Origin: Nitrospirota bacterium
GTDB taxonomy: Bacteria; Nitrospirota; Thermodesulfovibrionia; Thermodesulfovibrionales; Dissulfurispiraceae
Reading direction: 5' to 3'
DNA length: 57,842 nucleotides
NCBI GenBank assembly: GCA_040758355.1
Contig: JBFLWF010000016.1
Coordinates: 1 to 57,842, forward strand
Shown here: positions 2,371 through 51,445 of the stretch, piece by piece
Numbering within the stretch: the stretch's first letter is position 1
How the letters are laid out: each line of letters begins with the position of its first letter
Made by a program: the position numbers and the translations under genes
Notes under the pieces: generated by a model
Told to the model about the DNA's origin: nothing
Databases searched by the model: none
Seen by the model: only the letters and a program-made list of their open reading frames with translations

Positions 2371-2427
2371 CAGCAATCAGCCGTCAGTTTTCAGAAAAGG
2401 GAATCAAATACTGATTACTGGCGGCTT
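2371..2427. repeat. Heptamer-repeat hairpin (CAGNNNT units)
   Basis: CAGCAAT CAGCCGT CAGTTTT CAG ... CTGATTA CTGGCGG CT; arms are imperfect reverse complements. Confidence 0.6.
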
Positions 2428-2450
2428 AATTTTTGCTACAATAGTTATTA

Positions 2451-2906
2451 ATGAAAACTTTCTTACGATTTTTATCAAAAATCATCGCCACTGTCTTTTT
2501 CATCGGCTACATACCTTTTGCACCAGGCACATTCGGGAGTCTTGCAGGTCTGGCATTTATATGGATTTTCAAGCCTGATTTTTTACAGCAAATCATCATA
2601 TTGACAGTGGGTTTTATTTTCGGTATTGCGAGTTCTCAAATCGTTGAGAAAGAATCCGGGACAAAGGACAGCAAACATATCGTCATAGATGAGTTTGTGG
2701 GCTATATGGCATCGATTATATTTCTTCCATTAACCATCGGCTATACTATAGCAGCCTTTTTTTTGTTCAGGTTTTTCGATATACTAAAGCCGCCGCCCAT
2801 AAGGAATATCGAGAGGATGTTCAGCGGCGGCATAGGCGTGATGATCGATGATCTGGCGGCAGGAATAATTACAAATTTGATTTTACAGCTATGGAGACTT
2901 GTATGA
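2451..2906 (+). CDS. pgpA: Phosphatidylglycerophosphatase A
   Basis: APGTFGSL, D..HIVIDE, FRFFDILKP, GVMIDD motifs. Confidence 0.93.
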   Translation: MKTFLRFLSKIIATVFFIGYIPFAPGTFGSLAGLAFIWIFKPDFLQQIIILTVGFIFGIASSQIVEKESGTKDSKHIVIDEFVGYMASIIFLPLTIGYTIAAFFLFRFFDILKPPPIRNIERMFSGGIGVMIDDLAAGIITNLILQLWRLV

Positions 2907-3475
2907 GGTGCTTTATAGCCATAGACATGTCCGAGAATATAAAAAATGCCATTGCAGGCGTCATCGAGAAATGCGGACTGAATTCAAAAGGCGTCAGATG
3001 GGTTTCGGTTGAAAATATCCATCTCACACTCAAATTCCTCGGTGATGTAAAAGAAGATTTAATTCCTGAAATAGAAAAGGGACTCGCATTAATATGCATG
3101 AGGCGCGATGTGTTTAATATTAATATCCGTGGTGCAGGTGCATTCCCGAACTTCAAATATCCCAATGTACTATGGATGGGGATAGATGAGTCAGAAGAGT
3201 TAAAGAGGCTTTATGAGGATATAGAAGAATCCATGTTTGAATTGGGATTTGAAAAAGAGGACAGGAAATTCTCTCCACATCTTACCATAGGCAGGGTGAA
3301 GGACAGGAAGGGTATCGAGCCGGTCATCAAGGGGCTCTATACATTTAAGGATACATTTTTTGGTAGTATAGAAGTAAATGAAGTTCTGCTCATGCGGAGT
3401 GTTTTAAAACCAACAGGCGCAGAATATTCGAAGATAGCAGGATTTAAATTAAAAAATAAACAGGAGGAAACTTAA
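2903..3475 (+). CDS. thpR: RNA 2',3'-cyclic phosphodiesterase (2H phosphoesterase)
   Basis: MRCFIAI start with ATGA overlap; two HxT motifs ([15 protein letters not shown]); upstream of recA. Confidence 0.92.
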
Positions 3476-4482
3476 TGAACAAGGATAAGATGAAGGCCCT
3501 GGAAATGGCCATCTCCCAGATCGAAAAGAGCTTTGGAAAGGGCTCCATAATGCGCCTCGGTGCAGGCGAGGTCACCGAAGGAGTTCAGGCAATACCGACG
3601 GGTTCGTTATCACTCGACATCGCCACAGGAATAGGCGGATTCCCGAGGGGAAGGGTTATCGAGATATTCGGACCGGAATCTTCGGGAAAGACAACCCTTG
3701 CATTGAATGCCATAGCACAGGCGCAGAAGATTGGAGGAACTGCTGCATTTATAGATGCAGAGCATGCCCTCGATGTGAACTATGCATCAAGGATTGGCGT
3801 GAATATTGAAGACCTCCTGATAGCACAGCCCGATACAGGCGAGCAGGCGCTCGAGGTGGCAGAAACCCTTGTAAGAAGCGGTGCGATCGACATCATCGTG
3901 GTAGACTCCGTTGCTGCCCTTGTACCCAAGGCAGAGATAGAGGGAGATATGGGAGACGCCCACATGGGGCTTCAGGCGCGGCTTATGAGCCAGGCATTGA
4001 GGAAACTGACGGCAGCCATATCGAAATCGATGACCACAGTGATCTTCATTAACCAGATAAGGATGAAGATAGGCGTTATGTTCGGCAACCCTGAGACCAC
4101 AACCGGTGGAACAGCCCTCAAGTTCTACTCTTCCATGAGGCTCGATATCAGAAAGATAGACAGCCTTAAAGAAGGGCAGGAGATTATCGGCGGAAGGGTG
4201 AGGGTCAAGATAGTCAAGAATAAGGTTGCACCGCCTTTCAGGCAGGCAGAGTTCGACATATATTTTAATGAAGGGATCTCAAGGCTCGGAGAGGTTATAG
4301 ACATCGGAGTTGATAAGGGGATTATCGAAAAGGCAGGTGCATGGTACAGCTACAATGGAAGTAAGATCGGACAGGGCAGGGAGAATGTGAAGGAATATCT
4401 GAAGAACAATCCTGAAATTGCAGCAGAAGTGGAACAGAAGATACTGGAGACATCCGGTTTAAAGACAAATCCTAAATCCTAA
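3475..4482 (+). CDS. recA: Recombinase RecA
   Basis: [37 protein letters not shown] motifs. Confidence 0.99.
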
Positions 4483-4550
4483 ATACGAAATCCCAAACAA
4501 TTTTTGAAATTTGTATTTGTTTGGGATTTAGATATTAAGATTTGGAATTT
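4467..4550. repeat. Heptamer-repeat hairpin (AAATCCN units) overlapping the recA stop
   Basis: AAATCCT AAATCCT AAATACG AAATCCC AAAC ... GTTT GGGATTT AGATATT AAGATTT GGAATTT. Confidence 0.8.
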
Positions 4551-4557
4551 AAGGTGT

Positions 4558-5715
4558 ATGGATATAAACGAACTTCTCAAAAATGCATCTCAACTCAAGG
4601 CATCGGACATTCATATAAAGGTGGGGTCGCAGCCTGTTTTCAGGATTGACGGTAAACTTCTGCCGCAGGCCACCCACAGCATCATAACGCCGCAGGACGC
4701 CGTGGATATTGCCATGAAGGTCATGGGCGACCGGCAGAAGGAATTGTTTGAGAAGACCCATGACACTGATTTCTCATACAGCATACCGGGTGTGGGAAGA
4801 TTCCGGTGCAATGCCTTTTTACAGCGCGGCTCGGTCGGACTTGTTTTCAGGGTTATTCCCTATGGTATTCCAAAAATAGAAGACCTTTTATTGCCAGAGG
4901 TTATAAAGAAGATCGCAGATGAAGGGCGTGGATTAATACTGGTAACAGGTACGACCGGAAGCGGCAAATCCACAACCCTCGCATCTATCGTTGATTATAT
5001 AAATTCAAGCAGGTCTGTGAATATCGTGACCATAGAGGATCCGATAGAATATATACATAAGGATAAAAAAGGGATAATCAGCCAGCGCCAGATCGGCGAA
5101 GATACGGATTCTTTCAGCAAGGCGCTCAGGGCTGCATTAAGACAGGACCCCGACGTGATACTCGTGGGAGAGATGCGTGACCTCGAGACAATAGAGATCG
5201 CCCTCACCGCTGCAGAGACAGGCCATCTTGTTTTGAGCACGCTTCATACGCTGGATGCTGCGGAGACCGTGAACAGGATAATATCTGTATTCCCTACACA
5301 TCAACAGAATCAGATAAGGATACAACTTGCATCCGTCCTGAAAGGCGTTGTATCCCAGAGATTGATTCCGAGGGCTGACAGAAAAGGCAGGGTGCCGGCA
5401 GTGGAGGTATTGATAGCAACCGCTACAGTACGGAGCTGCATTCTCGAACCTGAAAAGACAATTGCATTGAGGGATGTTATTGCGCAGGGCAAGAATCTAT
5501 ACGGGATGCAGACCTTTGATCAGTCTATCTTTGACCTCTTGCAGGCAGGTCTGATAACCTATGACGAAGCAATGAGGCAGGCTACCAACCCTTCTGATTT
5601 TGCATTGAAGGTTAAGGGCATACAGTCTGCAGGCGATGTTGTAACAGAATCGTATAAGGATGTTAAAGCTGAAAAAGACAAGGGCAGCGGCGAATTCCAG
5701 ATCGAGAGATTTTGA
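4558..5715 (+). CDS. pilT: Type IV pilus retraction ATPase (PilT/PilU family)
   Basis: ASDIHI, GTTGSGKST, TIEDPIE, ALRQDPDVILVGEMRD, STLHT; ATG 4558 after AAGGTG. The TTG at 4504 lies in the repeat. Confidence 0.93.
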   Translation: MDINELLKNASQLKASDIHIKVGSQPVFRIDGKLLPQATHSIITPQDAVDIAMKVMGDRQKELFEKTHDTDFSYSIPGVGRFRCNAFLQRGSVGLVFRVIPYGIPKIEDLLLPEVIKKIADEGRGLILVTGTTGSGKSTTLASIVDYINSSRSVNIVTIEDPIEYIHKDKKGIISQRQIGEDTDSFSKALRAALRQDPDVILVGEMRDLETIEIALTAAETGHLVLSTLHTLDAAETVNRIISVFPTHQQNQIRIQLASVLKGVVSQRLIPRADRKGRVPAVEVLIATATVRSCILEPEKTIALRDVIAQGKNLYGMQTFDQSIFDLLQAGLITYDEAMRQATNPSDFALKVKGIQSAGDVVTESYKDVKAEKDKGSGEFQIERF

Positions 5716-6166
5716 AGACAGTCGTGGCAATGCGCTTAAATATGCATTCAGGCTGCTTGGTTACAGGGACAGAAGCGAGAAGGAGATGTACGAAAAACTG
5801 ATTCGTAAGGGCTTCTCTGAAAAAGTCGCCTTAGAGGCAGTTGGTTATCTAAACGATAAAGGATTTATCGATGACAGGAGATTTGCAGAAATTTTAAGGA
5901 AGGATGCGGTTGAGAGAAAGCATCTCGGTAAAAGGGGCACGAGAAGCTATTTGATGAATAAAGGAATTGCTGTTGATATTACAGAAGATATTTTAGGCGA
6001 CGATGGCGATTACCTCGATGCAGCAAAGAGTTTTGTTGAAAAGAAACTGAGGAATATGAAGAATATTGATGAAGATGCCTTAAAGAGAAAGCTCTGGGGC
6101 ATGCTTTCAAGGAGAGGCTTTTCATACGATACAATAGACAGAGTGTTGAAATCATATATAGCATGA
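5660..6166 (+). CDS. recX: Regulatory protein RecX
   Basis: LLGYRDRSEKE, GFIDDRRFA, LSRRGFS motifs; recA-alaS context. Start uncertain. Confidence 0.9.
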   Translation: MLKLKKTRAAANSRSRDFEDSRGNALKYAFRLLGYRDRSEKEMYEKLIRKGFSEKVALEAVGYLNDKGFIDDRRFAEILRKDAVERKHLGKRGTRSYLMNKGIAVDITEDILGDDGDYLDAAKSFVEKKLRNMKNIDEDALKRKLWGMLSRRGFSYDTIDRVLKSYIA

Positions 6167-6168
6167 AC

Positions 6169-6370
6169 TACACAAGATTATGACAGCAGGTGTGCATCAA
6201 AGCCTTTACAAAGTCGTTGTTCTTTATGCATACCATAAGACTATTAACGCATTTACCTAAACAGATAGCTATGTAGTAGGTGACGGATTCAAGATGATGT
6301 TTTATAATATTCCGAAGTGTAAAGTTCTTTTTTACACACCTGCTGCCATATGCGAGGCAATAATTGTGTA
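6169..6370. other. ~200-nt long-range inverted repeat (candidate structured RNA or MITE)
   Basis: TATGACAGCAGGTGTG (6179-6194) pairs with CACACCTGCTGCCATA (6335-6350); also TACACAA/TTGTGTA outside and CTTTACA/TGTAAAG inside. Confidence 0.55.
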
Positions 6371-6425
6371 ATTTGGATTTAAAAAGTGTAAGAATCGATC
6401 AATCTCGACAATAGGAGGAAGAGAA

Positions 6426-6826: not shown

Positions 6827-9478
6827 ATGAAGAGTGCGGAGATCAGGGATTTATTCCTGGAGTTTTTCAGATCAAAGGGGCACGAGATAGTTAAGAGCTC
6901 TTCCCTTATACCGAGGCATGACCCTACGCTGCTGTTTACAAATGCAGGGATGGTGCAGTTCAAATCGGTCTTTTTGGGCGAAGAAAAGAGGCCTTATACA
7001 AGGGCTGTGTCATGCCAGAAATGCATGAGGGCAGGGGGCAAGCACAGCGACCTCGAAAACGTGGGGCACACTGCACGGCATCATACATTCTTCGAGATGC
7101 TGGGGAATTTTTCATTTGGTGATTATTTTAAGAAGGATGCAATCCTATTTGCATGGGAGCTTCTCACCGAATGGTATAAACTGCCCAAGGATAAACTCTG
7201 GGTATCTGTTTATGAAGATGATGATGAGGCAGAGAAATTATGGATGGAGATTACTGATATTCCTTCTGACAGGATAGTGAGACTTGGAGCAAAGGACAAC
7301 TTCTGGCAGATGGGAGACACAGGCCCATGCGGGCCATGCTCTGAGATAATCATCGACCAGGGCGAGGATGTGGGATGCGGCAGGCCTGATTGCAAGGTGG
7401 GATGCGACTGCGACAGGTATCTGGAATTATGGAATCTTGTCTTTATGCAGTTTAACCGCGATGAATCAGGCAATCTTACTCCACTTCCAAAGCCGAGCAT
7501 AGATACAGGGATGGGACTCGAAAGAATAGCAGCGGTACTTCAGGGAAAGAGGAACAATTTCGATACAGACCTCTTTGCGCCGATTATATCGGCAGTCGAA
7601 TCCATATCAGGGCTCTCTTATGGCAAAAATAAGGAAATTGATACATCCATGAGGGTCATTGCAGACCACATGAGGGCAATGGCATTTTTACTTTCTGACG
7701 GCCTTATCCCTTCCAATGAGGGAAGGGGCTATGTTTTAAGGCGTATCATAAGAAGGGCATCGAGACATGCAAAGCTGCTTGGTCTTGAAGGATCTGTATT
7801 GTATAAATTGATCGATTCTGTTGCAGATGCAATGGGTAATGTCTATTCCGAACTTATTCAGGAAAAGGATCGGTCGTCGAAGGTCTTGATGATAGAAGAA
7901 GATCGTTTTACAAAGACCCTTGAGCAGGGCATGAGAATCCTTGACAGCGTGATCGATGGATTAAAGAAAGAAGGAAAAAATACCATTCCCGGAGATGAGC
8001 TGTTTAAGCTTTATGATACATATGGGTTTCCCCTCGACCTTGCGAGGGATATTGCAATGGATAACCATCTCCTGATCGATGAGGATGGCTTTAACCGCGA
8101 TATGGAGATACAGAAGGAGAGGGCACGGGCATCATGGGTTGGAGAAGAAGAGGCCATTGCATCCATATATAAAGAGCTTCAGTCAGAGATAGGTGAAACG
8201 CTGTTTATCGGATATGATACGCTTGAGTCGGAATCAGTGATTAAGGCAATACTGAAGGACGGGAAGGTCGTAACAGAGGCATCGGAAGGCGATGAGGCGG
8301 AGCTGTTCCTCGACAAGACGCCATTCTATGGAGAATCAGGCGGTCAGGTCGGGGATGTGGGGATTATTTGTAAAATTTCAAATTTCAAATTTCAAATTTC
8401 AAATTGTGAAGCAGAGGCTAAAGTTATTAATACAAAGAAAGAGGTTGGGCTGCACGCCCATGTGATAAAGATTAAAGGCGGGACTTTCAAGGTGTGGGAT
8501 AAGGTTAAGTGCCTTGTTGATAAAGACAAGAGGATGTCCACAGCAAGGAATCATACGGCAACCCATCTGCTGCACACTGCATTGAGGTCAGTCCTCGGCG
8601 AGCATGTAAAACAGGCAGGGTCTCTTGTATCCCCTGAAAGGATGCGTTTTGACTTCACCCATTTCTACGGCCTTGACAAGAGGGAGATAGAAAACATCGA
8701 GGATATAGTGAATGAAAAGATCCTTGAAAATATAAAAGTAGAGACAGAGATTTCAGATATACAGGATGCACTTAAATCAGGTGTCATTGCCCTCTTTGGC
8801 GAGAAGTATGGAGAAAAGGTGAGAGTTGTAAGGGTTCCGGCCTTCAGCGCCGAGCTTTGCGGTGGAACGCATTGCAGGGAAACCGGCGATATCGGGCTCT
8901 TTGTTATAGTCTCTGAAGGAAGTGTTGCCTCAGGGATAAGGAGAATAGAGGCACTCACAGGCAGGGCTGCCTTTGATTACTTAAGACAGAGGAATAATGA
9001 GCTTCAGAGAATATCGGAAATGCTCAAGACCGAAAGTCCCTATGAGCGTGTTGAAAAGCTGCTCAATGAACTGAAGGATATGGACAAAGAGATAGAATCA
9101 CTAAAGGCTAAGGCTGCTGCCCAGAGTTCTTCTTCCATAATTGAAAAGGCAAAGGAAATTGATGGCACAAAGGTTTTGGCATGCCGTGTGGATAATCTTG
9201 AACAAAAGGACCTTCGTGTGCTTGCAGACAATGTTAGGGACAGGCTCGGCTCAGGCATTATAGTCCTTGCCTCTGCAAAGGATGGACAGGCATCAATAGT
9301 TGCGATGGTTACGGATGACCTTGTGAAGAAGTACAATGCAGGAGCTATACTGAAGAAGGTTGCAGATATAGCAGGGGGCAGAGGTGGAGGCAAGGCTGAC
9401 ATGGCACAAGGGGGAACAAAGGAGATAGAAAAACTGGACAAAGCCCTTGAAGCAGTGTATGATTTGATAAAGAAATAA
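6827..9478 (+). CDS. alaS: Alanine--tRNA ligase
   Basis: DPTLLFTNAGMVQFK, HHTFFEMLGNFSFGDYFK, NHTATHLLH, ELCGGTH, GGRGGG. Confidence 0.99.
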   Translation: MKSAEIRDLFLEFFRSKGHEIVKSSSLIPRHDPTLLFTNAGMVQFKSVFLGEEKRPYTRAVSCQKCMRAGGKHSDLENVGHTARHHTFFEMLGNFSFGDYFKKDAILFAWELLTEWYKLPKDKLWVSVYEDDDEAEKLWMEITDIPSDRIVRLGAKDNFWQMGDTGPCGPCSEIIIDQGEDVGCGRPDCKVGCDCDRYLELWNLVFMQFNRDESGNLTPLPKPSIDTGMGLERIAAVLQGKRNNFDTDLFAPIISAVESISGLSYGKNKEIDTSMRVIADHMRAMAFLLSDGLIPSNEGRGYVLRRIIRRASRHAKLLGLEGSVLYKLIDSVADAMGNVYSELIQEKDRSSKVLMIEEDRFTKTLEQGMRILDSVIDGLKKEGKNTIPGDELFKLYDTYGFPLDLARDIAMDNHLLIDEDGFNRDMEIQKERARASWVGEEEAIASIYKELQSEIGETLFIGYDTLESESVIKAILKDGKVVTEASEGDEAELFLDKTPFYGESGGQVGDVGIICKISNFKFQISNCEAEAKVINTKKEVGLHAHVIKIKGGTFKVWDKVKCLVDKDKRMSTARNHTATHLLHTALRSVLGEHVKQAGSLVSPERMRFDFTHFYGLDKREIENIEDIVNEKILENIKVETEISDIQDALKSGVIALFGEKYGEKVRVVRVPAFSAELCGGTHCRETGDIGLFVIVSEGSVASGIRRIEALTGRAAFDYLRQRNNELQRISEMLKTESPYERVEKLLNELKDMDKEIESLKAKAAAQSSSSIIEKAKEIDGTKVLACRVDNLEQKDLRVLADNVRDRLGSGIIVLASAKDGQASIVAMVTDDLVKKYNAGAILKKVADIAGGRGGGKADMAQGGTKEIEKLDKALEAVYDLIKK
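8373..8407 (+). repeat. In-frame heptamer tandem (AAATTTC)x4 inside alaS
   Basis: Four perfect AAATTTC plus AAATTGT, translated as KISNFKFQISN just after GGQVGDVG. Confidence 0.85.
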
Positions 9479-9822: not shown

Positions 9823-9838
9823 ACTCCAACACTCCAAC
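9823..9838 (+). repeat. Octamer tandem remnant (ACTCCAAC)x2
   Basis: Fills the phasin-ubiB spacer; same unit as the addA insert at 33424. Confidence 0.55.
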
Positions 9839-11536
9839 ATGGACATCACTCGCCTTACGCGAACATATAGGTCTGCCAGGAGACTCCAGCAGATCATCAA
9901 TGTATTCCTGAGATACGGCTTTGGACAGATAATTGACCAGATACATCTCGGCAGGTATATCCCTTTTAAAAAGAGGTTAAAGGCATTTGGAGTCTGGCCT
10001 GCCCTCAAAGGCCCCTCTGTTCCGGAAAGGCTCAGGATGGCCTTTGCAGATCTGGGCCCCACATTTATAAAATTAGCTCAGGTTCTTTCATCGAGACCCG
10101 ATTTAATTACGACCCAGTTCGCCGATGAATTCAAGAAACTTCAGGATGAAGTCCCTCCCTTTCCGGTTTTAGAAGCCAAAAAAACAATAGAAGAAGATAT
10201 AAAGCTGCCTCTCGATAGAATTTTTAAATATTTTGATGATCTTCCGATTGCCGCTGCATCCATCGCACAGGTGCACAGGGCAGAGCTCCTTGACGGCTCC
10301 GATGTCGTTGTTAAAGTTCAGAGACCTGATATCAGGGAGCAGATAGAATCGGATATAAATATCCTAACCACTATTGCACGACTCCTCGATAAATATGTAC
10401 CGGAAAGCAGGTTCTTCAATCCCACCGGCATAGTGGAGGAGTTCTCAAAGACAGTGAGAAAAGAGATGGATTTCGTAGAAGAGGCAAGGAATTGCTGCAG
10501 GTTCAGAAAGAATTTTGAACATAACCTTGATGTATATATCCCAAAGATATATGCGGAGTTTGTCACAGAAAGAGTGCTTGTAATGGAGATGGTGGAGGGC
10601 GTAAGGATCGATAATATAACTGCCATAGACGAAATGGGACTTGACCGGAAAGGGCTCGCGAAAACAGGCGTGGATGCGTACTTCAAACAGACACTGGAAG
10701 ATGGCTTTTTCCATGCAGACCCTCATCCAGGGAATATTTTTGTTATGCCTACAGGCATGATTGCATTTTTAGACTTTGGCATTGTTGGAAGGGTCTCTGA
10801 CGAGCTCAAAGAGACTATGGCAGATACATTCCTCGCGCTTATCCACAGGGATTTTGACAGGCTTATAGATAACTATGTGGAGCTTGGCATTGTCCCCGAG
10901 CATATAGATATCGATGCCTTCAGGAAAGATTTTAAGGCAGACCTCAGGGATTTGCTGGAGCCACTCTATGGACTTACGCTGCAGGAAATAAACTTTGCGC
11001 AGTACCTCGATACCATCACCCACCTGGCGATTAAACATAATCTGAAAATACCTTCTGACCTTTTGTTGATCAATAAAGCAATGCTCATCCTCGAGAACAT
11101 CGGGCTGCAGCTTGACCCCAACTTCGATTTTATTGCCGCGGCAGAACCATACGCTTCACGGATTATCAGAAAGAGGATAAGCCCCTCGCGGCTTTACGAT
11201 AAGGCACGGAAGAATGTCATGGAGATCGGCGATTTTGCATTCCTCTTTCCGAGGCAGGTGAAGCAGATAATAAAAAAGGCACTGAAGGACGATATTCAGA
11301 TAAAGATGTTTCATGTCAATCTCCCGGAATTCATAAAAGACATGGACAGGTCGAGCAACAGGATCGCCTTTGCCCTTATCGTTAGCGCCATGCTTATAAG
11401 TTCTGCAATAATGCATGCGACAAAGGTTCCTCCAATCATATTCGGCATTTCCCTTTTTGGCATTTCCGCCTTTGGCTTTGCATTTCTTCTGGGTATCTGG
11501 CTCATCATCTCCATAATCCGTTCAGGAAGGCTGTAA
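9839..11536 (+). CDS. ubiB: AarF/ABC1/UbiB family atypical kinase
   Basis: LGPTFIKLAQ, AAASIAQVH, VVVKVQRP, HADPHPGN, LDFG; C-terminal TM helices. Confidence 0.92.
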   Translation: MDITRLTRTYRSARRLQQIINVFLRYGFGQIIDQIHLGRYIPFKKRLKAFGVWPALKGPSVPERLRMAFADLGPTFIKLAQVLSSRPDLITTQFADEFKKLQDEVPPFPVLEAKKTIEEDIKLPLDRIFKYFDDLPIAAASIAQVHRAELLDGSDVVVKVQRPDIREQIESDINILTTIARLLDKYVPESRFFNPTGIVEEFSKTVRKEMDFVEEARNCCRFRKNFEHNLDVYIPKIYAEFVTERVLVMEMVEGVRIDNITAIDEMGLDRKGLAKTGVDAYFKQTLEDGFFHADPHPGNIFVMPTGMIAFLDFGIVGRVSDELKETMADTFLALIHRDFDRLIDNYVELGIVPEHIDIDAFRKDFKADLRDLLEPLYGLTLQEINFAQYLDTITHLAIKHNLKIPSDLLLINKAMLILENIGLQLDPNFDFIAAAEPYASRIIRKRISPSRLYDKARKNVMEIGDFAFLFPRQVKQIIKKALKDDIQIKMFHVNLPEFIKDMDRSSNRIAFALIVSAMLISSAIMHATKVPPIIFGISLFGISAFGFAFLLGIWLIISIIRSGRL

Positions 11537-16528: not shown

Positions 16529-17872
16529 TTATCCGCTAATGTCGATTTCTTCTATCAAGAGGCTTGAAGCGCCTATATTACCATAAAATCGCAGATCATC
16601 GCCAACCATGACCACCTTTTTAAACAGGTCGAGGATATTGCCTGAAATCACCGCCTCTTTTACAGGATGCTTTATCTCTCCATCTTCTATCCATAATCCT
16701 GATGCACCCACAGAGAATTCCCCTGAAATGGGGTTTGCAGTGTGCATGCCCATTGTTTCGATAACATAGAGGCCTCTGTTAATATTTTTTACGAGATTTT
16801 CGAATCTTTTTGTATATTCCGCTGATGTTGGTTCTATATAGAGATTTGTGGGGCCTACCGTAGGAAGGCCTGTGAAGCCGCCTCGAACAGCATTTCCTGT
16901 GGATGCAATGCCATCTTTCTTTGCTGTGTAAGTGTTATATAAATATCCGTTTAAAATCCCTTTTCCGATTAATATCTTGTGAGATGTGGGGACGCCTTCG
17001 TCATCAACAGGTTTGCTGCCGAGTTTTCCATCGAGCAATCCGCTGTCCATGATATTGAGCCTGTCGCTTATTACCACATCGCCTTTTTTGCCTGCAAGCA
17101 TTGACTTCTTTTTCTGTACCGATTCGGATGAAAGGGCAGACGAAAGTATGCCTAAGAACTCTGTGGATACCGAATTGTCCAGAAGGACAAAGCCCTTAAT
17201 AGAGTTTATCTTCCGTGCCCCGAGGATCTGTGCTGCCCTGCGTGCCGCAGTCCTGCCAACTTCCTCGAAGGATACATCCTTTAAAAACCTGCTTCCCTGA
17301 TAATCCCATCCAAGCTGGCTTTCACTGCCTTCCTCTGCAATTGCCATTAATTGAGCCGAACATCCTGTGGATTGATAATGCGCATTTATGCCGTGAGAAT
17401 TTACGATATAGGTATTGTTTGTGCTGAAGCTCCCTGACGCCTTCCTGATTTTCTTTATACGATTGTCTTCATTAAATGCAGAACTCTCGATAAGAAGTGT
17501 GCGATTTATAGCCGCATCTTCTGATAATGAGGCTATATCATTGTCAAAGATCAAAGGCTGGCTAATTGCTGAAGGCTGAAGGGCTGAAGGCAATTCAAGA
17601 TAATCGTCAGGCTCGGAATACTTTGATGCCTCTATCGCATTTTCTGCAACAATATCCATTTCATCCGGGTTTGTGGAATACGAAAACCCGAGGCGGTTAT
17701 CCTTTATGACCCTGATGCAATATCCCATGGTCATCGATGACTCAAGGGTATCTATCTTCTGCTCCTTGACCTCAATGCCGAGGCTCTTTGATGTCTTTAC
17801 ATAGACCTCTGCCTTATCAGCGCCTTTTTTCATGGCAATTTCCATAAGTTTTAAAGCGAACTCTGTATTCAT
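16529..17872 (-). CDS. pmbA: TldD/PmbA family protein (PmbA/TldE-like)
   Basis: GADKAEVY, DDEGVP, STGNA, SGEFS, GEIKHPV; start reassigned to ATG 17872 overlapping the queD stop. Confidence 0.9.
   Translation of the reverse strand: MNTEFALKLMEIAMKKGADKAEVYVKTSKSLGIEVKEQKIDTLESSMTMGYCIRVIKDNRLGFSYSTNPDEMDIVAENAIEASKYSEPDDYLELPSALQPSAISQPLIFDNDIASLSEDAAINRTLLIESSAFNEDNRIKKIRKASGSFSTNNTYIVNSHGINAHYQSTGCSAQLMAIAEEGSESQLGWDYQGSRFLKDVSFEEVGRTAARRAAQILGARKINSIKGFVLLDNSVSTEFLGILSSALSSESVQKKKSMLAGKKGDVVISDRLNIMDSGLLDGKLGSKPVDDEGVPTSHKILIGKGILNGYLYNTYTAKKDGIASTGNAVRGGFTGLPTVGPTNLYIEPTSAEYTKRFENLVKNINRGLYVIETMGMHTANPISGEFSVGASGLWIEDGEIKHPVKEAVISGNILDLFKKVVMVGDDLRFYGNIGASSLLIEEIDISG
17555..17592 (-). repeat. 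In-frame CTTCAGC-unit tandem inside pmbA
   Basis: Minus strand GCCTTCAGCCCTTCAGCCTTCAGCAATTAGCCAGCC, translated LPSALQPSAISQP. Confidence 0.7.
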
Positions 17873-18264: not shown

Positions 18265-18339
18265 AGGTGATAGGTAATAGGTTATAGGTCATGGGAAAAT
18301 ATTTCTTTCCTATAGCCTATCGCCCATAACCCATAGCCT
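18265..18339. repeat. Heptamer-repeat hairpin (AGGTNAT units), 4+4 units
   Basis: AGGTGAT AGGTAAT AGGTTAT AGGTCAT GGGAAA ... TTTCCT ATAGCCT ATCGCCC ATAACCC ATAGCCT. Confidence 0.85.
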
Positions 18340-22285: not shown

Positions 22286-22326
22286 AACATCTTTTTATTG
22301 TTTATAATCAAACAGGGGAATGATTG

Positions 22327-23925
22327 ATGGCGAGAGTTGCTAAAGAAAAGAAGAATCAAAATGATGAGCCTTTAGAAAAGAAACTCTGGAAGGCGGCGGA
22401 CAAACTCAGGAAGAACATGGACGCCGCAGAATACAAGCATGTTGTTCTTGGCTTAATCTTCCTGAAATATATCTCGGATGCCTTTGAAGAACTTTATCAA
22501 AAGCTGAAAGAAGGTAAAGGCGCTTATGAGGGCGCAGATCCCGAAGATAAGAATGAATACACTGCTGAAAAGGTCTTTTATGTACCGCCGTCTGCACGAT
22601 GGAATTGGCTTCAAGGCAGGGCAAAACTGCCGACCATAGGCAAGGATGTTGATGATGCGATGGATGCGATTGAGAAGGATAACCCTTCTCTTCGTGGAGT
22701 ATTGCCAAAGGTTTATGCTCAGGAAAAGCTGGATAAGCAAAGCCTTGGCGGTTTGATTGACCTTATAGGCAGCGCGACCCTCGGCACTCAAGAAGCGCAG
22801 AGCAAAGATGTTTTAGGCAAGGTTTATGAATACTTTCTTGGCGAGTTTGCCTTAGCAGAAGGCAAAAAGGGCGGGCAGTTCTACACGCCCGGAAGCGTTG
22901 TAAAACTTCTTGTTGAAATGCTTGAGCCTTATGAGGGAAGGGTATTTGACCCTTGCTGTGGCTCAGGCGGAATGTTTGTGCAGAGTGAAAAATTTGTTGA
23001 AGCGCACAGAGATTATTACAAGAAAAAAGGCAACGGCTTATCTTTAAATCCTGCAGACCGCATCTCGATTTACGGACAGGAGAGCAACCAGACCACATGG
23101 CGTCTTGCAAAGATGAACCTTGCGATCCGCCATATAGACAGCAGTAATGTTAAATGGAACAACGAAGGTTCGTTTCTCAATGACGCGCATAAAGACCTGA
23201 AGGCAGATTATATCATTGCAAATCCGCCCTTTAACGACAGCGACTGGAGCGGCGACCTGCTCCAAAATGATGCCCGCTGGAGTGTTTTGGGACAAAAACT
23301 ACCGCCTCCACCGAATAATGCAAATTACGCATGGATTCAGCACTTCCTCTATCACCTTGCGCCGACAGGCATGGCAGGGTTTGTATTGGCAAAAGGTTCT
23401 TTGACAACAAAGACCACTAACGAGGGCGAAATACGCAAGGCAATGGTTGAGAATGACCTGATAGACTGCATCGTGAACCTGCCGACAAAACTTTTTCTTA
23501 ATACACAGATACCTGCTTGTCTTTGGTTCATTCATCGCAATAAGCAAAAGAGGAAAGGCGAAATCCTGTTCATAGACGCACGGAACATGGGCTATTTAAT
23601 AAACCGCAGGAACAGGGTTTTGTCAGATGAAGACATTGCCCTAATTTCTCAAACATATCACAACTGGCGCACAGGCGAAGGCGAATACAAGGATGTGCAG
23701 GGCTTCTGCAAGTCAGCGACTTTAGATGAAGTAAGGGCATTGAATTATGTATTAACCCCTGGCAGATATATCGGTCTACCAGATGACGAGGATGATTTCA
23801 ATTTTGCCGAAAGGTTTAATGCGTTAAAGGCGGAATTGGAAAAACAGATAGCGGAAGAAGCGGCACTTAACAAGGCGATAATGAAAAACCTTGCGAAGAT
23901 CGAGGTGAAAGAAAATGGTAAATAG
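22327..23925 (+). CDS. hsdM: Type I R-M methyltransferase subunit
   Basis: [36 protein letters not shown]. Confidence 0.97.
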
Positions 23926-28534: not shown

Positions 28535-28566
28535 GCTTTATTATACTATATTGTTTGAATAAATAT

Positions 28567-31500: not shown

Positions 31501-31815
31501 GAAAAAGAGCTGAATCTATCAACGGAAGAACTGGCTTTCTATGATGCCCTTGCTGAAAATAAATCGGCGGTAGAAGTCCTCGGTAATGAAAAGCTCAGAA
31601 TTATTGCGATTGAAGTGGCAGAAAAGGTAAAGGCTAATGCAACGATAGACTGGACAATTCGGGAAAGCGCAAGGGCAAAGCTGATGGTGCTTGTTAAGAG
31701 GACATTGAACAAATACGGCTATCCTCCTGACATGCAGCAGAAGGCAGTTGATACGGTCTTGAAGCAAGCGGAGTTGTTGGCTGATTATTTTGCGCAGACG
31801 GCGATAGACAAATGA
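28567..31815 (+). CDS. hsdR: Type I R-M restriction subunit
   Basis: RPD..VIELK nuclease, HTQGSGKS, DEAH, FTGTP, MWLTGFDAP, QAIARVNR. Confidence 0.97.
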   Translation: MTKLTENSIETFAIEFLQSLGWDYIHGLSIAPGAEHAERESFEQIILKHRLRKAVSRLNPDIPADAQEQAVQKVLRIYSPDLLHNNETFHHFLVEKVKIPYQQDGYERSYEVSLIDFENPLNNEFLAINQYTIIENNQNKRPDVLLFVNGIPLVVIELKNAADESATVRRAYDQIQTYKATIPSLFTYNSVCVISDGMECRAGSVSAGFSRYTAWKSADGKTDASRFSPQLETLIKGMLNPITLLDLVRNFIVFEKTKKEDPKTGIIRVETEKKLAAYHQYYAVNKAIESTIKASVKEGSKKGGVVWHTQGSGKSISMVFYAGKLITSVEMQNPTIVVITDRNDLDDQLFETFAASKQLLRQEPMQAKDREHLKEILKVASGGIVFTTIQKFLPEAGRTEYDRLSDRTNIVVIADEAHRTQYGFEAKLIDEKDRETKEVVGKRIAYGFAKYMRDALPNATYIGFTGTPIENTDINTPAVFGQYVDIYDISQSVADGATVKIYYESRLAKVNLDEEGRRLIEEFDRELEEDAEITDKQRAKAKWTKLEAIVGNQERVKNLAKDIVTHFEHRQAVFDGKGMIVAMSRRIAVDLYNEIIRLRPEWHSDDLTKGAIKVVMTASSADGPVMQKLHTTKAERKVLSDRMKDPADPMKLVIVRDMWLTGFDAPCLHTMYIDKPMRGHTLMQAIARVNRVFKDKPGGLVVDYLGIASDLKKALSFYSDSGGKGDPAEGQEKAVAAMLEKLEVVRQLFFEESKTKDAIMIAEPAAYYADYPGTGFNYKRFFSASPNEKLSIILQAEEHILGLEDGKNRFIREVTLLSQAFALSIPHEKALAIKDEIAFFQAVKARLVKFVGGGTGRPDIDIETAIKQIVDEALSSEQVIDIFDAAGIKKPEISILSEEFLLEIKGMKHQNLALELLKKVLNDEIKIRSKTNLVKGRALLEMLETAIKKYNNGLLTTAEIIQFLVDEVAKKIREHDEREKELNLSTEELAFYDALAENKSAVEVLGNEKLRIIAIEVAEKVKANATIDWTIRESARAKLMVLVKRTLNKYGYPPDMQQKAVDTVLKQAELLADYFAQTAIDK

Positions 31816-40672: not shown

Positions 40673-40761
40673 AGACCAAAAAGGGAAAAGTCCGCAAAAT
40701 ATAGTGTTAAGTTAATTACTATAACGATTAAGTCAAAATTTTGTCAACCTAATCTGGGCGA

Positions 40762-40816
40762 TTTTGTAAGGTAGGCACTGCTCCAAGACTCTTTCCGCAG
40801 CACCTACCTTACAAAA
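40762..40816. repeat. REP-like inverted repeat in a divergent intergenic region
   Basis: TTTTGTAAGGTAGG-CACTGC ... GCAGCA-CCTACCTTACAAAA (14-bp perfect outer stem). Confidence 0.7.
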
Positions 40817-40889
40817 CACAATAAAGAATTGCTCAATTTAGGGTCAATGAATTGGCCTGTGATAAAGTGTTAAAATGTAACAGAAAGGG

Positions 40890-42467
40890 GTGATAATGCT
40901 TGATTATCTTATAAAAAATGGAATGGTCTTTGACGGCAGCGGTTCGGAGCCTGTTGAGACAAATATCGGCATAAGCGGAGACAGGATAACCTACTTAGGC
41001 AATGAGGAAATCCCTGCAAGAGAAGCGATTGATGCGAAAGGACTTATTGTTTCTCCTGGATTCATCGATACGCATGCCCATTCCGAATTTAACCTCCTCG
41101 CAGATGGAAGGGCAGAGGGAAAGATTTCTCAGGGAGTCACTACAGAGATAAACGGCAATTGCGGGCTTTCGGCTGCACCCCTTTATGGAGAAGCCTTTGA
41201 ACACAGGGAAGCCGATCTGAAAGAACTCGGAATAAAAGAGAGATGGTCGACTTTTAAAGAATATTTCAATATCCTGAGAAATAAAGGCATTGCAATAAAT
41301 TTTGCGACATTATGCGGACATGGAAATATACGGGCATCGGTAATGGGTTATAAAGATATAATGCCCGATGAAAATGCCATGAATGAAATGAAGCGGCTTT
41401 TATTGGAGGCCGTAGAGCAGGGAGCAAAAGGCATCTCAACAGGATTAATTTATCCTCCCGGCGTTTATTCAACTACTGATGAATTGATTGAATTATGTAA
41501 AACCTTGAATTATTCCGAACTCCGAAAACTCATTTATGCCTCTCACATGAGAAGCGAGGGCGATGCCCTTATTGAGGCCATTGAGGAGGTTATCACGATA
41601 GGAAGAGAAGCTCATGTGAATGTTCATATATCCCATATAAAGACAGCAGGTGAAAGGAACTGGTGGAAGATTGACAATGCCATCGAATTGATTGAAAGGG
41701 CGAGAAATGAAGATGTGAATTTAACCTGCGATAGATACCCTTACACCGCAGCCAGTACGGATCTCGATACAATTCTGCCTTCATGGGTATATGATGGAGG
41801 CGTGGATGAAGAATTAAGGAGGCTTAGGGACCCCGATATCTCAAAAAGAATTAAGGCTGAAATTGGCCAGAAAGATGAAAATTACTGGAAAGGGGTTTGT
41901 ATCTCATCCGTTGCAAAATCTGAAAACAAATGGATGGAAGGGGAGAGTGTTTTTGATATTGCATTGAAATTGGAAAAACGGCCTGAAGATGTCCTTTTCG
42001 AAATCCTTATAGATGAGAAGGTAAGGGCAGGTGCAATATTTTTTTCCATGAGCGAGGATAATTTAAAGAAATTTCTGTCTCTTCCCTATGCAATGATAGG
42101 CTCGGACAGCTCTGTTAGAAGCTTTTCAGGCCCGACATTTACAGGAAAGCCGCATCCAAGGGCATTCGGGAGCTTTCCGAGATTCATATCGAAATATGTG
42201 AAGAATGAAGGATTGATGCCTCTTTCAGAAGCTATAAAAAAGATGACATATCTTCCCGCCTTAGCCTTTGGTCTGAAAGAGCGCGGCCTTATAAAAGAGG
42301 GCTTTTATGCCGATATTGCAGTATTCGACCACGATAAGATTATTGACAGGGCGACATTCAAAGAGCCTTATAAGAAGTCCGAAGGCATTGCATATGTTTT
42401 TGTTAATGGTAAGTTGGCGGTTAAAGAAGGGGAATTCACAGGGGGCATTTCTGGAAGGATTATATAG
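40890..42467 (+). CDS. N-acyl-D-amino-acid deacylase (amidohydrolase)
   Basis: PGFIDTHAH, GNCG, HMRSE, HISHIK, IGSDS, HPRAFGSFPR. Confidence 0.92.
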   Translation: MIMLDYLIKNGMVFDGSGSEPVETNIGISGDRITYLGNEEIPAREAIDAKGLIVSPGFIDTHAHSEFNLLADGRAEGKISQGVTTEINGNCGLSAAPLYGEAFEHREADLKELGIKERWSTFKEYFNILRNKGIAINFATLCGHGNIRASVMGYKDIMPDENAMNEMKRLLLEAVEQGAKGISTGLIYPPGVYSTTDELIELCKTLNYSELRKLIYASHMRSEGDALIEAIEEVITIGREAHVNVHISHIKTAGERNWWKIDNAIELIERARNEDVNLTCDRYPYTAASTDLDTILPSWVYDGGVDEELRRLRDPDISKRIKAEIGQKDENYWKGVCISSVAKSENKWMEGESVFDIALKLEKRPEDVLFEILIDEKVRAGAIFFSMSEDNLKKFLSLPYAMIGSDSSVRSFSGPTFTGKPHPRAFGSFPRFISKYVKNEGLMPLSEAIKKMTYLPALAFGLKERGLIKEGFYADIAVFDHDKIIDRATFKEPYKKSEGIAYVFVNGKLAVKEGEFTGGISGRII

Positions 42468-43175
42468 ATGAAGCCGATTATTGGCATAACTGCTGACATG
42501 GATGAGAATATTTATAAGCTTAAGCAGGATTATATCTCATCTGTTGCTAAGTCAAGCGGCCTGCCTCTGATTTTGGCACCCATAATTGATAATGCAAGCC
42601 GGATTGCAGATATTATCGACGGCCTATTATTGCCAGGAGGCGACGACCTTCTGCCTGAATATTACGGCGAGGATATTTCTGTGCCTTTAGAAAAATTGAA
42701 ATTTGTAAAAAAAGAGAGAAGCGATTTCGAGATTGCTATTTTAAAAGAGATAGCGAAGCGACAGAAGCCTGTTTTAGCCATATGCTACGGAATGCAGCTT
42801 GTGAATGTCGCCTTTGGAGGAAGCCTTTATCAGGATATGGAAATGCAGGTAAAAGGCGCTGTTAATCATAAGACTGGCCAGCATGCTATAAAAATTGACG
42901 AATCATTCTGTTCCATATTCAATATCCCGCAATCAGCAATCAGTCTACAAGACCCTGTGGGCAGTCAGCAATTGGTTAACTCCTCCCACCATCAGGCAGT
43001 CAAAGTACTTGCAGACGGTTTTGAGGTTTTTGCAGTGTCGGAGGACGGGATAGTAGAGGGATTCTATAAAAAGGATTATCCTTTTTTTATTTGTGTTCAG
43101 TGGCATCCGGAACGCATATTTTATGATAAACTTTCATTAGGGATATTTGAGGAATTTATAAAAAAGAGTCATTAA
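42468..43175 (+). CDS. Class I glutamine amidotransferase (PuuD/peptidase C26 family)
   Basis: LPGGDD, AICYGMQ, VNSSHHQAV, VQWHPE. Confidence 0.92.
   Translation: MKPIIGITADMDENIYKLKQDYISSVAKSSGLPLILAPIIDNASRIADIIDGLLLPGGDDLLPEYYGEDISVPLEKLKFVKKERSDFEIAILKEIAKRQKPVLAICYGMQLVNVAFGGSLYQDMEMQVKGAVNHKTGQHAIKIDESFCSIFNIPQSAISLQDPVGSQQLVNSSHHQAVKVLADGFEVFAVSEDGIVEGFYKKDYPFFICVQWHPERIFYDKLSLGIFEEFIKKSH
42913..42972 (+). repeat. Degenerate in-frame heptamer insert in the GATase gene
   Basis: ..CGCAATC AGCAATC AGT...GGCAGTC AGCAATT.., translated NIPQSAISLQDPVGSQQL just before VNSSHHQ. Confidence 0.5.
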
Positions 43176-43222
43176 GTCATTAAGTTTTAATTGCTCGATA
43201 ACTTAATAACTTATTGACTTAA
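43167..43222. repeat. Octamer-repeat hairpin overlapping the GATase stop
   Basis: AGTCATTA AGTCATTA AGTT ... TAACTTAA TAACTTAT TGACTTAA. Confidence 0.75.
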
Positions 43223-45803: not shown

Positions 45804-45866
45804 ATTTAAGCTCAATTCAGCCATAGGCGTATAGACGCAATAGTTGCGGATGTGAATGAGTTAGGC
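45804..45866 (+). other. Degenerate attC-like site
   Basis: ATTTAAG-CTCAATTCA...CGCAA-TAG-TTGCG...TGAATGA-GTTAGGC; ends in GTTRRRY. Confidence 0.4.
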
Positions 45867-45892
45867 GAAATCAGCCACTATCAAAAAAAATT

Positions 45893-46351
45893 ATGAATGA
45901 AGATTTTAAAAAGATAGTTGATAAACTTCCTGACCTATTGAGTCGTCTTATCAATTCCCCGATGAAGCCTTGGAGCGATCTTGGGAGTGTTCCCAGAAGG
46001 GGTATATATGTTTTTTACGAAAATAGTAAAGCTATCTATGTTGGACGTACAAATCGCATGAAAGACCGAATTAAAGAGCATGGTAGACCCAGTTCTACGC
46101 ACAATAGTGCACCTTTTGCCTTCAATTTGGCCAAGCGATCTGGAGAAGAAAAAGGGATTGATGTTAGCAAGCCTCGTGTTGAACTTGAGAAAGATCAATT
46201 GTTTGTACCGTTTTTTAGAGAGGCAAAGGAAAGAGTATCTAAAATGTCTGTTCGTGTGATTGAAATCAACGACCCTGTTCTTCAAACTATTTTTGAAGTG
46301 TATGCCTCTATCGATCTAAAAACGGAGTTTAACGACTTTGACACTCATTGA
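45893..46351 (+). CDS. GIY-YIG nuclease family protein in a cassette-like unit
   Basis: RGIYVF...IYVGRT..RIKEH; flanked by 20-bp inverted repeats (45860-45879, 46357-46376). Confidence 0.8.
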   Translation: MNEDFKKIVDKLPDLLSRLINSPMKPWSDLGSVPRRGIYVFYENSKAIYVGRTNRMKDRIKEHGRPSSTHNSAPFAFNLAKRSGEEKGIDVSKPRVELEKDQLFVPFFREAKERVSKMSVRVIEINDPVLQTIFEVYASIDLKTEFNDFDTH

Positions 46352-46369
46352 TAAGGAGTGGCTGCCTTC

Positions 46370-46436
46370 GCCTAACAGCGACACAAACGGTAAACTCACA
46401 AACCTGACGGTTTCACCCGTGCCGTAACCGTTAAAC
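46370..46436 (+). other. attC-like recombination site
   Basis: GCCTAAC (RYYYAAC) ... AAACC-TGAC-GGTTT ... GTTAAAC (GTTRRRY), 67 bp, right after the ORF stop. Confidence 0.55.
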
Positions 46437-50546: not shown

Positions 50547-50577
50547 TTGACAATTGGGCAAGACAGTAATATAAAAT
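50547..50577 (+). promoter_or_regulatory. Sigma70-type promoter upstream of ihfA
   Basis: TTGACA-N17-TATAAA. Confidence 0.55.
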
Positions 50578-50620
50578 TAGCGATAAAAATAATTTATCCT
50601 TTTTTAACAAGGGGTAGTAT

Positions 50621-50899
50621 ATGACAAAGGCCGACATTGTAAATCTTGTATTTGAGAAGGTAGGGCTTCCTAAAAATGAGGCGCAGGAGATGGTAGAGAC
50701 TGTTTTTGATACCATAAAGCAAACACTGATAGCAGGCGAATCCATAAAGATTTCCGGCTTCGGGACTTTTAACGTGCGAAAAAAGAATTCACGGATAGGG
50801 AGAAATCCAAAGACAAAGGAAGAGGTGGAGATCACACCGCGCAGGGTTGTGACATTCAAGGCAAGCGACCAGCTCAAGGAACTCATAGAAAAGATGTAG
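50621..50899 (+). CDS. ihfA: Integration host factor subunit alpha
   Basis: MTKADI, KISGFGTF, GRNPKT, RRVVTFK. Confidence 0.92.
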   Translation: MTKADIVNLVFEKVGLPKNEAQEMVETVFDTIKQTLIAGESIKISGFGTFNVRKKNSRIGRNPKTKEEVEITPRRVVTFKASDQLKELIEKM

Positions 50900-50910
50900 A
50901 TAGATAAAAA

Positions 50911-51336
50911 ATGCACGACGCATTTAAATCGCCGGAGCCGCTGAGACTCTTCCCCGAAAAGCTTTTTTATAAAATAGGAGAAGTCAGCAGAATTATTGGT
51001 GTAGAGTCTTATGTCCTGAGGTACTGGGAAACGGAATTCCCGTTCCTCGCTCCGAGAAAGAGCAAATCGGGTCAGCGTATCTACACAAAGAAGGACATCG
51101 ACCAGATACTGCAGATTAAAAGACTTCTTTACGACGAGAAATATACAATTGACGGTGTGAGGCGTAAACTCGGCGGCAATATAGAGCAGGCCGCTGAAGC
51201 CTTTGCAGAAACCGAAGAAGTAAAAAGAGAAGGGGTAGCTGAAAAAATGACCGGGCCGAACATCGATACCGAAGGAATCGTCACCATGGTAAAGACGAGG
51301 CTCAGGGAAATACTCCGTAACAATTTCGGGGCGTAG
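50911..51336 (+). CDS. MerR family HTH regulator
   Basis: YKIGEVS, VLRYWETEFP, YTIDGVR; usual ihfA-merR-tRNA-Pro context. Confidence 0.92.
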   Translation: MHDAFKSPEPLRLFPEKLFYKIGEVSRIIGVESYVLRYWETEFPFLAPRKSKSGQRIYTKKDIDQILQIKRLLYDEKYTIDGVRRKLGGNIEQAAEAFAETEEVKREGVAEKMTGPNIDTEGIVTMVKTRLREILRNNFGA

Positions 51337-51404
51337 CGCAGTCTGGTTAGCGCACTCGCTTGGGGTGCGAGAGGTCGGCCGTTCGAATCGGCTCGCCCCG
51401 ACCA
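51327..51404 (+). tRNA. tRNA-Pro(GGG)
   Basis: CGGGGCG acceptor pairs with CGCCCCG-ACCA; anticodon arm CTCGC-TTGGGGT-GCGAG; TTCGAAT T-loop. Confidence 0.96.
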
Positions 51405-51410
51405 TTTCTA

Positions 51411-51445
51411 AAGGTGGGAAGTGAAAAGTGAAAGGTGAAAAATTA
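51411..51445 (+). repeat. Heptamer tandem containing the Crp/Fnr start codon
   Basis: AAGGTGG GAAGTGA AAAGTGA AAGGTGA AAAATTA. Confidence 0.65.

Follow-up and report, generated by a model that had tools for sequence, protein, structure and literature searches.

Among small bacterial repeats, the cyanobacterial short tandemly repeated repetitive (STRR) heptamers and the Rickettsia palindromic elements are partial precedents, and in repetitive extragenic palindrome (REP) systems one conserved palindrome family flanks an HUH transposase, the REP-associated tyrosine transposase (RAYT). Here we analyse tandem arrays of 6- to 8-base units, some of them paired as the inverted arms of a hairpin, in a 57,842-nucleotide stretch of Nitrospirota DNA (the window), which is contig C16 of the 2.77 Mb genome G000. 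The portions of the literature covered here hold several closer counterparts. Geobacter metallireducens has paired tandem heptamer or octamer sites (classes 1-3) and elements of four GGGACCG heptamers (Aklujkar 2009, PMC2700814), Xanthomonas has convergent GGGAATC repeat pairs and Nostoc GGGGAYT arrays (Rehm 2015, PMC4692102), and the P6b stem of the Nostoc tRNA-Leu intron contains Class 1 and Class 2 repeat motifs (Costa 2002, via PMC3488679). Long simple sequence repeats (SSRs; units of 5-11 nucleotides, nt) show a heptamer excess (Mrazek 2007, via PMC4679880 and PMC4692102), and TAACTGA repeats occur in Beggiatoa (PMC4679880). The intervening sequences (IVS) of 23S rRNA (S23p/PF05635; Coxiella) are closed by a terminal stem whose loop carries a PF05635 gene, and are sporadic and horizontally acquired (PMC4990558). 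SPDIR (short-patch double illegitimate recombination) microindels replace 3-100 nt by an ectopic strand at micro-homologies and involve no element-encoded enzyme (bioRxiv 10.1101/2023.11.22.568220). A sequence-only reading of the window claimed an undescribed system; for the gene-less layout this goes too far, since Geobacter, Xanthomonas and Nostoc P6b already provide published examples.

We compared G000 with four congeners (G001-G004) and with further genomes of the family (68 in the family-wide searches). The G002 sample covers 1.27 Mb of about 2.6 Mb, with 92% identity to G000 over recA and hpt. Genome-wide, G000 contains 283 arrays of period 7 and 110 of period 8, against one of each in order-5 Markov sequence; periods 4, 5, 10, 11 and 13 gave one to three arrays each. 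Within the window, ten arrays reached a score of at least 12 and none did so in any of five codon-preserving shuffles, while at a score of at least 8 there were 24 arrays compared with 2-11 in the shuffles. The 7- and 8-base repeat runs are real and genome-wide, and the tandem-repeat enrichment predicted for them is confirmed.

The units fall into families that recur across the genome, with bursts confined to particular lineages. In G000, 45 arrays carry the exact unit of the top family, the next two families having 25 and 20, and of the 17 units first picked out in the window 16 lie within one mismatch of 3-74 arrays; the remaining one had been assigned an incorrect period. Overlapping pattern matches to the top family number 99 in G000 and 19, 13, 23 and 2 in the four congeners, and its unit has no match in 50 of the 68 family genomes. 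The impression that the unit differs at nearly every locus therefore holds in the window and fails genome-wide. The sequence-only reading had also taken the loci to share an architecture and not a sequence; this is not supported, given the families, the elements copied letter for letter and the resemblance of a replacing unit to the one replaced.

An inverted partner was found within 80 nt for 81 of the 393 arrays, against 1 of 393 in the control. Most arrays are therefore one-armed and the hairpin is not the rule. The 74 hairpins of G000 have loops of 5-103 nt, and the G-rich arm is 5' in 67 of them. Arms are mismatched in 29 of the 40 multi-array elements. On the sense strand, G-U mismatches (54) equal A-C mismatches (56), and RNA-level pairing was rejected for want of a G-U bias. 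With most arrays one-armed, many two-array elements chimeric and no strand bias in G-U pairs, the suggestion of a structure-recognising process could not be upheld.

Whole hairpins are copied to unrelated loci. In G000, two hairpin pairs in unrelated flanks are identical at 60/60 and 68/69 nt, and a further copy, at least 85% identical across three quarters of the element, exists for 18 of the 74 hairpins. In addB of G009 one hairpin occurs at two sites 270 nt apart, alike at 76 of 78 nt with the loop included. Copied hairpins together with single-unit bursts mean that slippage is insufficient, and the earlier statement that the arrays are not random slippage is borne out by whole-element copies, bursts and changes of period.

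In order to follow turnover at genome scale, we mapped 171 of 351 G000 elements to G002. The same unit was present at 54 sites, a different unit (at least two changes) at 42, and no array at 75, so that empty alleles do exist in relatives as had been predicted; random sites in G002 carried an array in 3 of 183 cases. The 42 different-unit sites comprise 13 that differ at two positions, 17 at three or four and 12 that change period (29 strictly different). In genes, another array stood at 34 of 76 non-identical sites, with 28 of 47 in the reciprocal comparison; between genes the figure was 8 of 41 sites, against 25 of 486 array-free junctions. Independent filling would imply just ~105-130 in-gene target sites, by an arithmetic whose thresholds differ by direction, yet in-gene indels of at least 6 nt between G000 and G002 occupy 242 sites over 0.99 Mb aligned. 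The implied number is below the observed one, and therefore the sites remember. Even in lineages that lack arrays, the four addB sites are all loops of variable length, so tolerance contributes; site tolerance helps and does not suffice to explain same-site recurrence.

The replacing unit differs from the old one by 2.74 mismatches, compared with 3.34 for random units of like polarity (27 pairs, 0 of 2000 draws), and orientation was retained in 21 of 29 unit replacements. Length changes were multiples of three in 59 of 60 cases in genes and in 25 of 56 outside. These data show that a new unit takes the old unit's place, that copy number slips by whole units and that in-gene changes preserve the reading frame. 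Longest-ORF calls place 240 of the 393 arrays inside open reading frames (ORFs), and many repeat runs lie in essential genes. For 96 of the 242 in-gene indels one or both genomes carry an array. Array turnover therefore contributes heavily to changes in proteins, those encoded by alaS, addA and addB among them.

The 17 window loci, all confirmed at the positions given in the sequence-only reading, are as follows (fold z is against mononucleotide shuffles).

2371-2428, unstranded: two-armed element of the AGCAATC/AGCCGTC family, 5' of pgpA; z -3.7, array score 5.
4467-4550, unstranded: two-armed AAATCCT hairpin spanning the recA stop, before pilT; z -6.3.
8373-8405, + strand: one-armed AAATTTC array, in frame in alaS.
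9823-9850, + strand: weak remnant of the 8-mer ACTCCAAC, before the ubiB start; score 9.
17555-17591, - strand: array of the GGCTGAA family, in frame in a PmbA/TldD gene.
18265-18337, unstranded: two-armed AGGTNAT hairpin between the hpt stop and the queD start; z -1.5.
19560-19626, + strand: chimera of an AGTGGTC left arm and an older ACTCRTY right arm, in addB; z -0.1, unpaired.
19800-19831, + strand: one-armed ACCCATTC array in addB.
20963-20989, + strand: one-armed GCCATCA array in addB.
21602-21625, + strand: array of the 6-mer AGGTAG in addB.
32354-32375, + strand: weak GGAGTTA remnant in addA; score 5.
33424-33463, + strand: one-armed ACTCCAWC array in addA; score 18.
34134-34205, unstranded: two-armed GAGTYAA hairpin, in frame in addA; z -2.4.
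41513-41535, + strand: weak remnant in an amidohydrolase gene; score 6.
42913-42945, + strand: weak GCAATCA remnant in a glutamine-amidotransferase-like gene; score 8.
43167-43222, unstranded: two-armed hairpin of the 8-mer AGTCATTA, spanning a stop codon ahead of an AI-2E gene; z -4.8.
51411-51441, + strand: one-armed AAGTGAA array between tRNA-Pro and the start of a Crp/Fnr gene.

Eleven of the 17 are intragenic (alaS, the PmbA/TldD gene, four in addB, three in addA, the amidohydrolase and the glutamine-amidotransferase-like gene). Tandem Repeats Finder recovers 14, missing 2371, 32354 and 41513, and the window loci had no match in Rfam. Six weak loci (2371, 32354, 41513, 42913, 9823 and 17555; scores 5-9) are not significant as single arrays, because the shuffles also give 2-11 arrays at a score of at least 8. 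Relatives carry arrays at 32354, 41513 and 42913, which supports these three as remnants. As for the six loci put forward as two-armed hairpins, 2371, 4467, 34134 and 43167 fold better than shuffles, 18265 folds weakly, and 19560 is unpaired, its arms coming from two different families.

At 4467, 8373, 9823, 18265, 20963, 21602 and 43167 at least one congener is empty or array-free. The recA hairpin at 4467, whose loop recurs at G000 C2:150331, is absent from G001, G002 and G004, and G003 has a different element there with a nested palindrome. The alaS array at 8373 is lacking in G001 and G002, where the site is 30 nt shorter, is the same in G003 and is reduced to one unit in G004, and the remnant at 9823 is retained in all congeners except G003. 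G002 and G004 have no array at 20963, where G001 has a unit with one mismatch. The site at 43167 is empty in G002, G003 and G004, and in runs X2 and X6 14 unrelated nt stand in for the 60 nt, which is replacement rather than insertion.

A different element in at least one relative was found at 4467, 17555, 18265, 19560, 19800, 21602, 32354, 34134, 41513 and 42913. At 18265, G001 and G002 have a different unit and G003 and G004 are empty; across 30 family genomes, six or more types of unit occupy this hpt-queD junction, while other genomes have a short junction with no element. Two contigs of run X1, one filled (depth 139.5) and one empty (58.3), branch at this site, which is likely a strain difference because the run has a minor strain of about 58.3 depth elsewhere. 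The left arm at 19560 differs among G000, G001 and G002/G004, and the right arm belongs to a matching whole hairpin in G009 and G078; arms are therefore replaceable singly. A full AGGCAAT hairpin stands at 19800 in G001 and G022, and an AGTAACG hairpin in G009. Units at 21602 differ in G002 and G003, the site is empty in G001, and single units are gained or lost in runs X1 and X3. The element at 34134 is the same in G001, is a CCAGTAG array in G002 and G004 and another element in G003. AGCAGTC-type repeats occupy 32354 in G001-G004, other repeats or another palindrome class occupy 41513 in G002-G004, and 42913 has related arrays in G002-G004 and a different one in G001. The array at 17555 is the same in G002-G004, with another palindrome class in G001. 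Elsewhere, 2371 is near-identical in G001 and unmappable in G002-G004, 33424 is degenerate or absent in all four congeners, and 51411 is retained in G001, G002 and G004 with a variant in G003. No cargo gene was found in G001-G004 at any of the 17 sites, at the recA or hpt junctions (30 listed genomes each) or at the four addB sites (22 genomes).

Several kinds of element share sites, palindrome classes being nested in or substituted for periodic elements in G003 at recA-pilT (L002) and at L172, and in G001 at 17555 and 32354. The element at 2371 itself adjoins another palindrome class at ~2315-2370, which has about 12 genome copies and resembles the repeat flanking a RAYT-like ORF at C10:9216.

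Gene-bearing forms of the same layout occur elsewhere in G000. All six PF05635 matches and the single PF13366 (GxxExxY) match are bracketed by inverted periodic arms, as judged by eye. Each of these seven cassettes has its own unit; the left arm runs up to, or close to, the start codon, and the right arm lies at or near the stop. Arms had been expected around four-helix-bundle, GxxExxY, GIY-YIG and HUH genes; they are present for the first two (7/7), and a GIY-YIG gene and the RAYT-like ORF are flanked by non-periodic repeats. A scan of 2500 G000 ORFs gave 17 with flank pairing of at least 14 and none in shuffled pairs; four of the 17 are PF05635/PF13366 genes and the remainder are other palindrome classes or neighbouring hairpins. 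Eighty relatives of the C19 cassette protein, drawn from many phyla, were compared, 75 of them with full flanks. Paired flanks were found in 55 of these 75, against 12% of mismatched controls, with period 7 in 45 of 52 cassettes, and the closest relatives mostly have similar G-rich arms across phyla. On the cargo side there is also a weak bAvd match, and for PF05635 the closest solved relative is structure 2GSC.

At the C19 site G000 has a cassette with AGGTAAT arms, the unit family of the window hairpin at 18265, and G002 and G003 have a gene-less AGTTCAC hairpin whose place, in comparison with G002, the cassette fills to the nucleotide. Because G003, which shares the hairpin, is more distant than G002, the cassette likely replaced the hairpin. 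The GxxExxY cassette on C7 is common to G000 and G022, and G002 has the right arm only. Of 15 relatives examined at the stop/start junction on C2, 12 lack any insert, two carry two other hairpins and one is unspanned; at C39 the sequence in relatives is unrelated, except that G060 retains just the right arm. Some sites that are empty in G000 hold cassettes in G003 and G022. Collectively these comparisons show that an orthologous place may be occupied by a cassette, a gene-less hairpin or a single arm, or be empty.

Other cassette-type genes were noted alongside. Different four-helix-bundle cassettes with different arms occupy the same site in G000 (C24:186-620, L167) and G002 (C21, L052), between what appear by eye to be the last two repeats of a CRISPR array; PF05635 genes have previously been noted in cas loci. 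An internally deleted gene with a four-helix-bundle suffix lies at window 27500-27700, inside a type I restriction-modification island (22324-31815, between addB and addA) that also contains DUF1016, Fic and unknown genes and is much shorter or different in G002-G004. A longer relative of the deleted gene occupies the syntenic place in G004, and in G002 another cassette of the four-helix-bundle kind directly precedes addA. On C78 of G022 (L058), a weak TIGR02436 match without arms is followed by template-repeat-like sequence and is, by eye, probably the avd gene of a diversity-generating retroelement (DGR).

The window also holds small elements of other kinds. A GIY-YIG gene (24464-24766) lies between the arms of a non-periodic inverted repeat of its own (24420-24805), of which additional copies follow downstream, and a weak GIY-YIG-like gene (45893-46351) is bracketed at 45850-46375 by a unique 20-nt inverted repeat. 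Further multi-copy elements lie at 6160-6395, 33060-33100 (inside addA) and 40747-40859, with 16-19 other genome matches each; in runs X4 and X6 just 13 nt stand in place of the last. At 57710-57842 is the end of an insertion sequence (IS), with about 15 copies at contig ends.

To account for these observations we put forward, at even confidence, a reading in which the arrays are the whole or eroded arms of cassette-derived small elements, spread by short-homology patch replacement at fixed sites. A cassette (G-rich arm, four-helix-bundle or GxxExxY gene, C-rich arm) would arrive by horizontal transfer and act as the source of new unit families, and its gene may then be lost by deletion between or into the arms. 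Short DNA patches would pair with a resident array or a junction between genes and substitute for it, in a single-strand replacement resembling gene conversion or SPDIR that would leave no target duplication and need no element-encoded recombinase. Slippage would adjust array length, and selection would presumably remove out-of-frame cases.

Short-homology copying is favoured because there is neither end motif, nor target duplication, nor RVT_1, because the multi-array elements are so often mismatched and because the commonest family has no cassette. An AAAGAC-like end motif noticed by eye is not enriched, at 17 outer versus 21 inner ends of 370 G000 arrays and 9 versus 7 of 153 in G002. The outer side being no richer than the inner, no terminal sequence shared with a transposase element, such as would define a miniature inverted-repeat transposable element of an IS, was found. 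No target-site duplication was seen by eye in filled/empty alignments, which show sequence replaced instead; no formal scoring was made. Reverse transcriptase (RVT_1) has no match in G000 or G002, and among the matches listed it is present in three of the four congeners, G002 excepted.

Several observations weigh against this reading. SPDIR is reported to be very rare in wild-type Acinetobacter (10.1101/2023.11.22.568220), and G000 has recA. The 13 different-unit sites only two changes apart could reflect in-place drift, and the variable addB loops count on the same side. Passage from cassette to gene-less hairpin of the same unit was not seen at the four comparable cassette sites of G000, and the commonest family (AGCAGTC) is the one without a cassette there. 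Cassette-type genes occur in 49 of 68 family genomes and the top unit in only 18. Arrays per Mb in G002 equal those in G000, yet G002 has only two cassette-type genes; resident cassettes are therefore not needed. Two other comparisons weigh on neither side: loops of 8 of 74 hairpins scored as cassette-gene stumps, against 1.7 in shuffles, the matches being mostly the arms' own ATGGG, and cross-phylum cassette units overlap G000 families in 26 of 52 cases, against 47% of random 7-mers. Short-homology copying also leaves the period of 7-8 and the fixed polarity unexplained.

That gap keeps alive an explanation driven by the cargo protein, a dedicated mobility without transposase, which we consider possible though doubtful. 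Here the cargo, either a four-helix-bundle pentamer distantly like DGR Avd or a GxxExxY nuclease of the PD-(D/E)XK type, would recognise the periodic arms, move cassettes and gene-less copies with a preference for existing arms, and cut or chaperone a single-stranded intermediate. A fixed period and polarity require a cause, and the arming of all seven such genes in G000, the exact replacement of a hairpin by one cassette, the two cassettes at one CRISPR-end site, the similar G-rich arms across phyla and the weak bAvd match are as this explanation would have it, but the missing RVT_1, end motif and target duplication and the 29 mismatched elements speak against it, as does the lack of a GxxExxY gene in all four congeners; in the part of PMC4990558 covered, moreover, the cargo protein is without known catalytic activity. 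We thus regard it as rather unlikely that these proteins move arm-bounded cassettes, home onto arm-carrying sites and overwrite them. If true, homing cassettes would seed the heptamer arrays of many phyla and rewrite loops of essential proteins within a genus.

A purely local origin, in which slippage makes the arrays and template switching the second arm at tolerant places, with strain allele exchange shuffling the alleles, appears quite improbable. Letter-for-letter copies with non-repeated loops at unrelated loci do not fit it, nor do the bursts of a single unit, the 12 of 42 swaps that change period, the fixed polarity or the same arms around mobile genes in many phyla, even though unit-sized slips occur at 21602 and in relatives, the sites are tolerant loops under a frame filter, same-site units resemble each other, and run X1, with its minor strain, holds a filled and an empty allele. 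As sole cause it is largely refuted by the copied hairpins. Selected regulatory sites, whether RNA stems cut by RNase III, terminators or sites for nucleoid- or RNA-binding proteins as proposed for Geobacter and Beggiatoa, find little credence with us, for although 49 of the 74 hairpins lie between co-directional genes, often directly past stop codons, and rRNA IVS stems are cut by RNase III (PMC4990558, in part), G-U and A-C mismatches are equal, 240 arrays lie in ORFs, 75 of 171 sites are array-free in the sister genome and units are freely swapped. The elements are likely neutral or selfish, not regulatory.

How, then, does the G000 repertoire compare with the systems outlined at the start? 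Its RAYT-like ORF, so called by us on sequence type, is flanked by another, non-periodic palindrome, unlike the REP/RAYT arrangement. Long SSRs and the Beggiatoa repeats share the heptamer excess, which in G000 is far above chance with heptamers commonest (283 vs 1), and a patchy distribution with strain-specific positions; slippage or a regulator is invoked in the covered portions of PMC4679880 and PMC4692102, whereas G000 shows copied elements, bursts, period changes, polarity and cassettes that local slippage alone would not give. The rRNA IVS likewise place a PF05635 ORF within terminal inverted repeats, which holds for the G000 cassettes and not for the gene-less loci of the window. They differ in location, the window loci lying in or between protein genes and the compared cassettes being flanked by protein genes or a CRISPR end and not by rRNA genes, and the G000 cassettes further differ in their tandem-periodic arms, in the possible GxxExxY cargo and in the dominance of gene-less forms. 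SPDIR, which would call for an ectopic donor with micro-homology at both ends and for independence from RecA, serves as a mechanistic analogue only, since in the portions covered it is very rare in the wild type and not known to favour repeats (10.1101/2023.11.22.568220); G000 has donor-like copies and similar units, which such a process might produce.

Xanthomonas and Nostoc offer heptamer arrays with four units preferred, 70-75 inverted pairs per genome and long repeats at different genes in two species; there a single G4-type unit is mostly intergenic, and the portions covered contain no cassette or swap analysis (PMC4692102). In the Nostoc P6b stem degenerate heptamer arms pair, two unit classes alternate at one site and unrelated elements insert into the stem (PMC3488679, in part), but this is one locus in a structured RNA, as opposed to hundreds of loci in G000, most in mRNA and many in frame. 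In Geobacter, three to five tandem 7- or 8-mers stand on opposite strands at variable distance, in several unit classes and with copies in genes; the 74 hairpins of G000, with their loops of 5-103 nt, follow the same paired-site plan, and the class 3 unit MTYCTGA matches the G000 family CTTCTGA/AGAAGTC with equal polarity (PMC2700814). The Geobacter sites are read as regulator binding sites or RNAs, with binding by IHF or HU proposed, and cargo genes, empty alleles and same-site swaps are not described in the portions of that paper covered. In our literature search, outside which most subscription papers lay, neither cassettes of the arm-gene-arm type beyond rRNA nor same-site swapping on a genome-wide scale turned up in any description, and there was no paper joining gene-less heptamer arrays with PF05635 stem genes. 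What G000 adds to these systems is measured site memory in the form of same-site overwriting, a cassette-for-hairpin swap and whole-element copying. The bacterial heptamer excess and the role of PF05635 have both long been unexplained, and one testable model now joins them, with named sites in four states.

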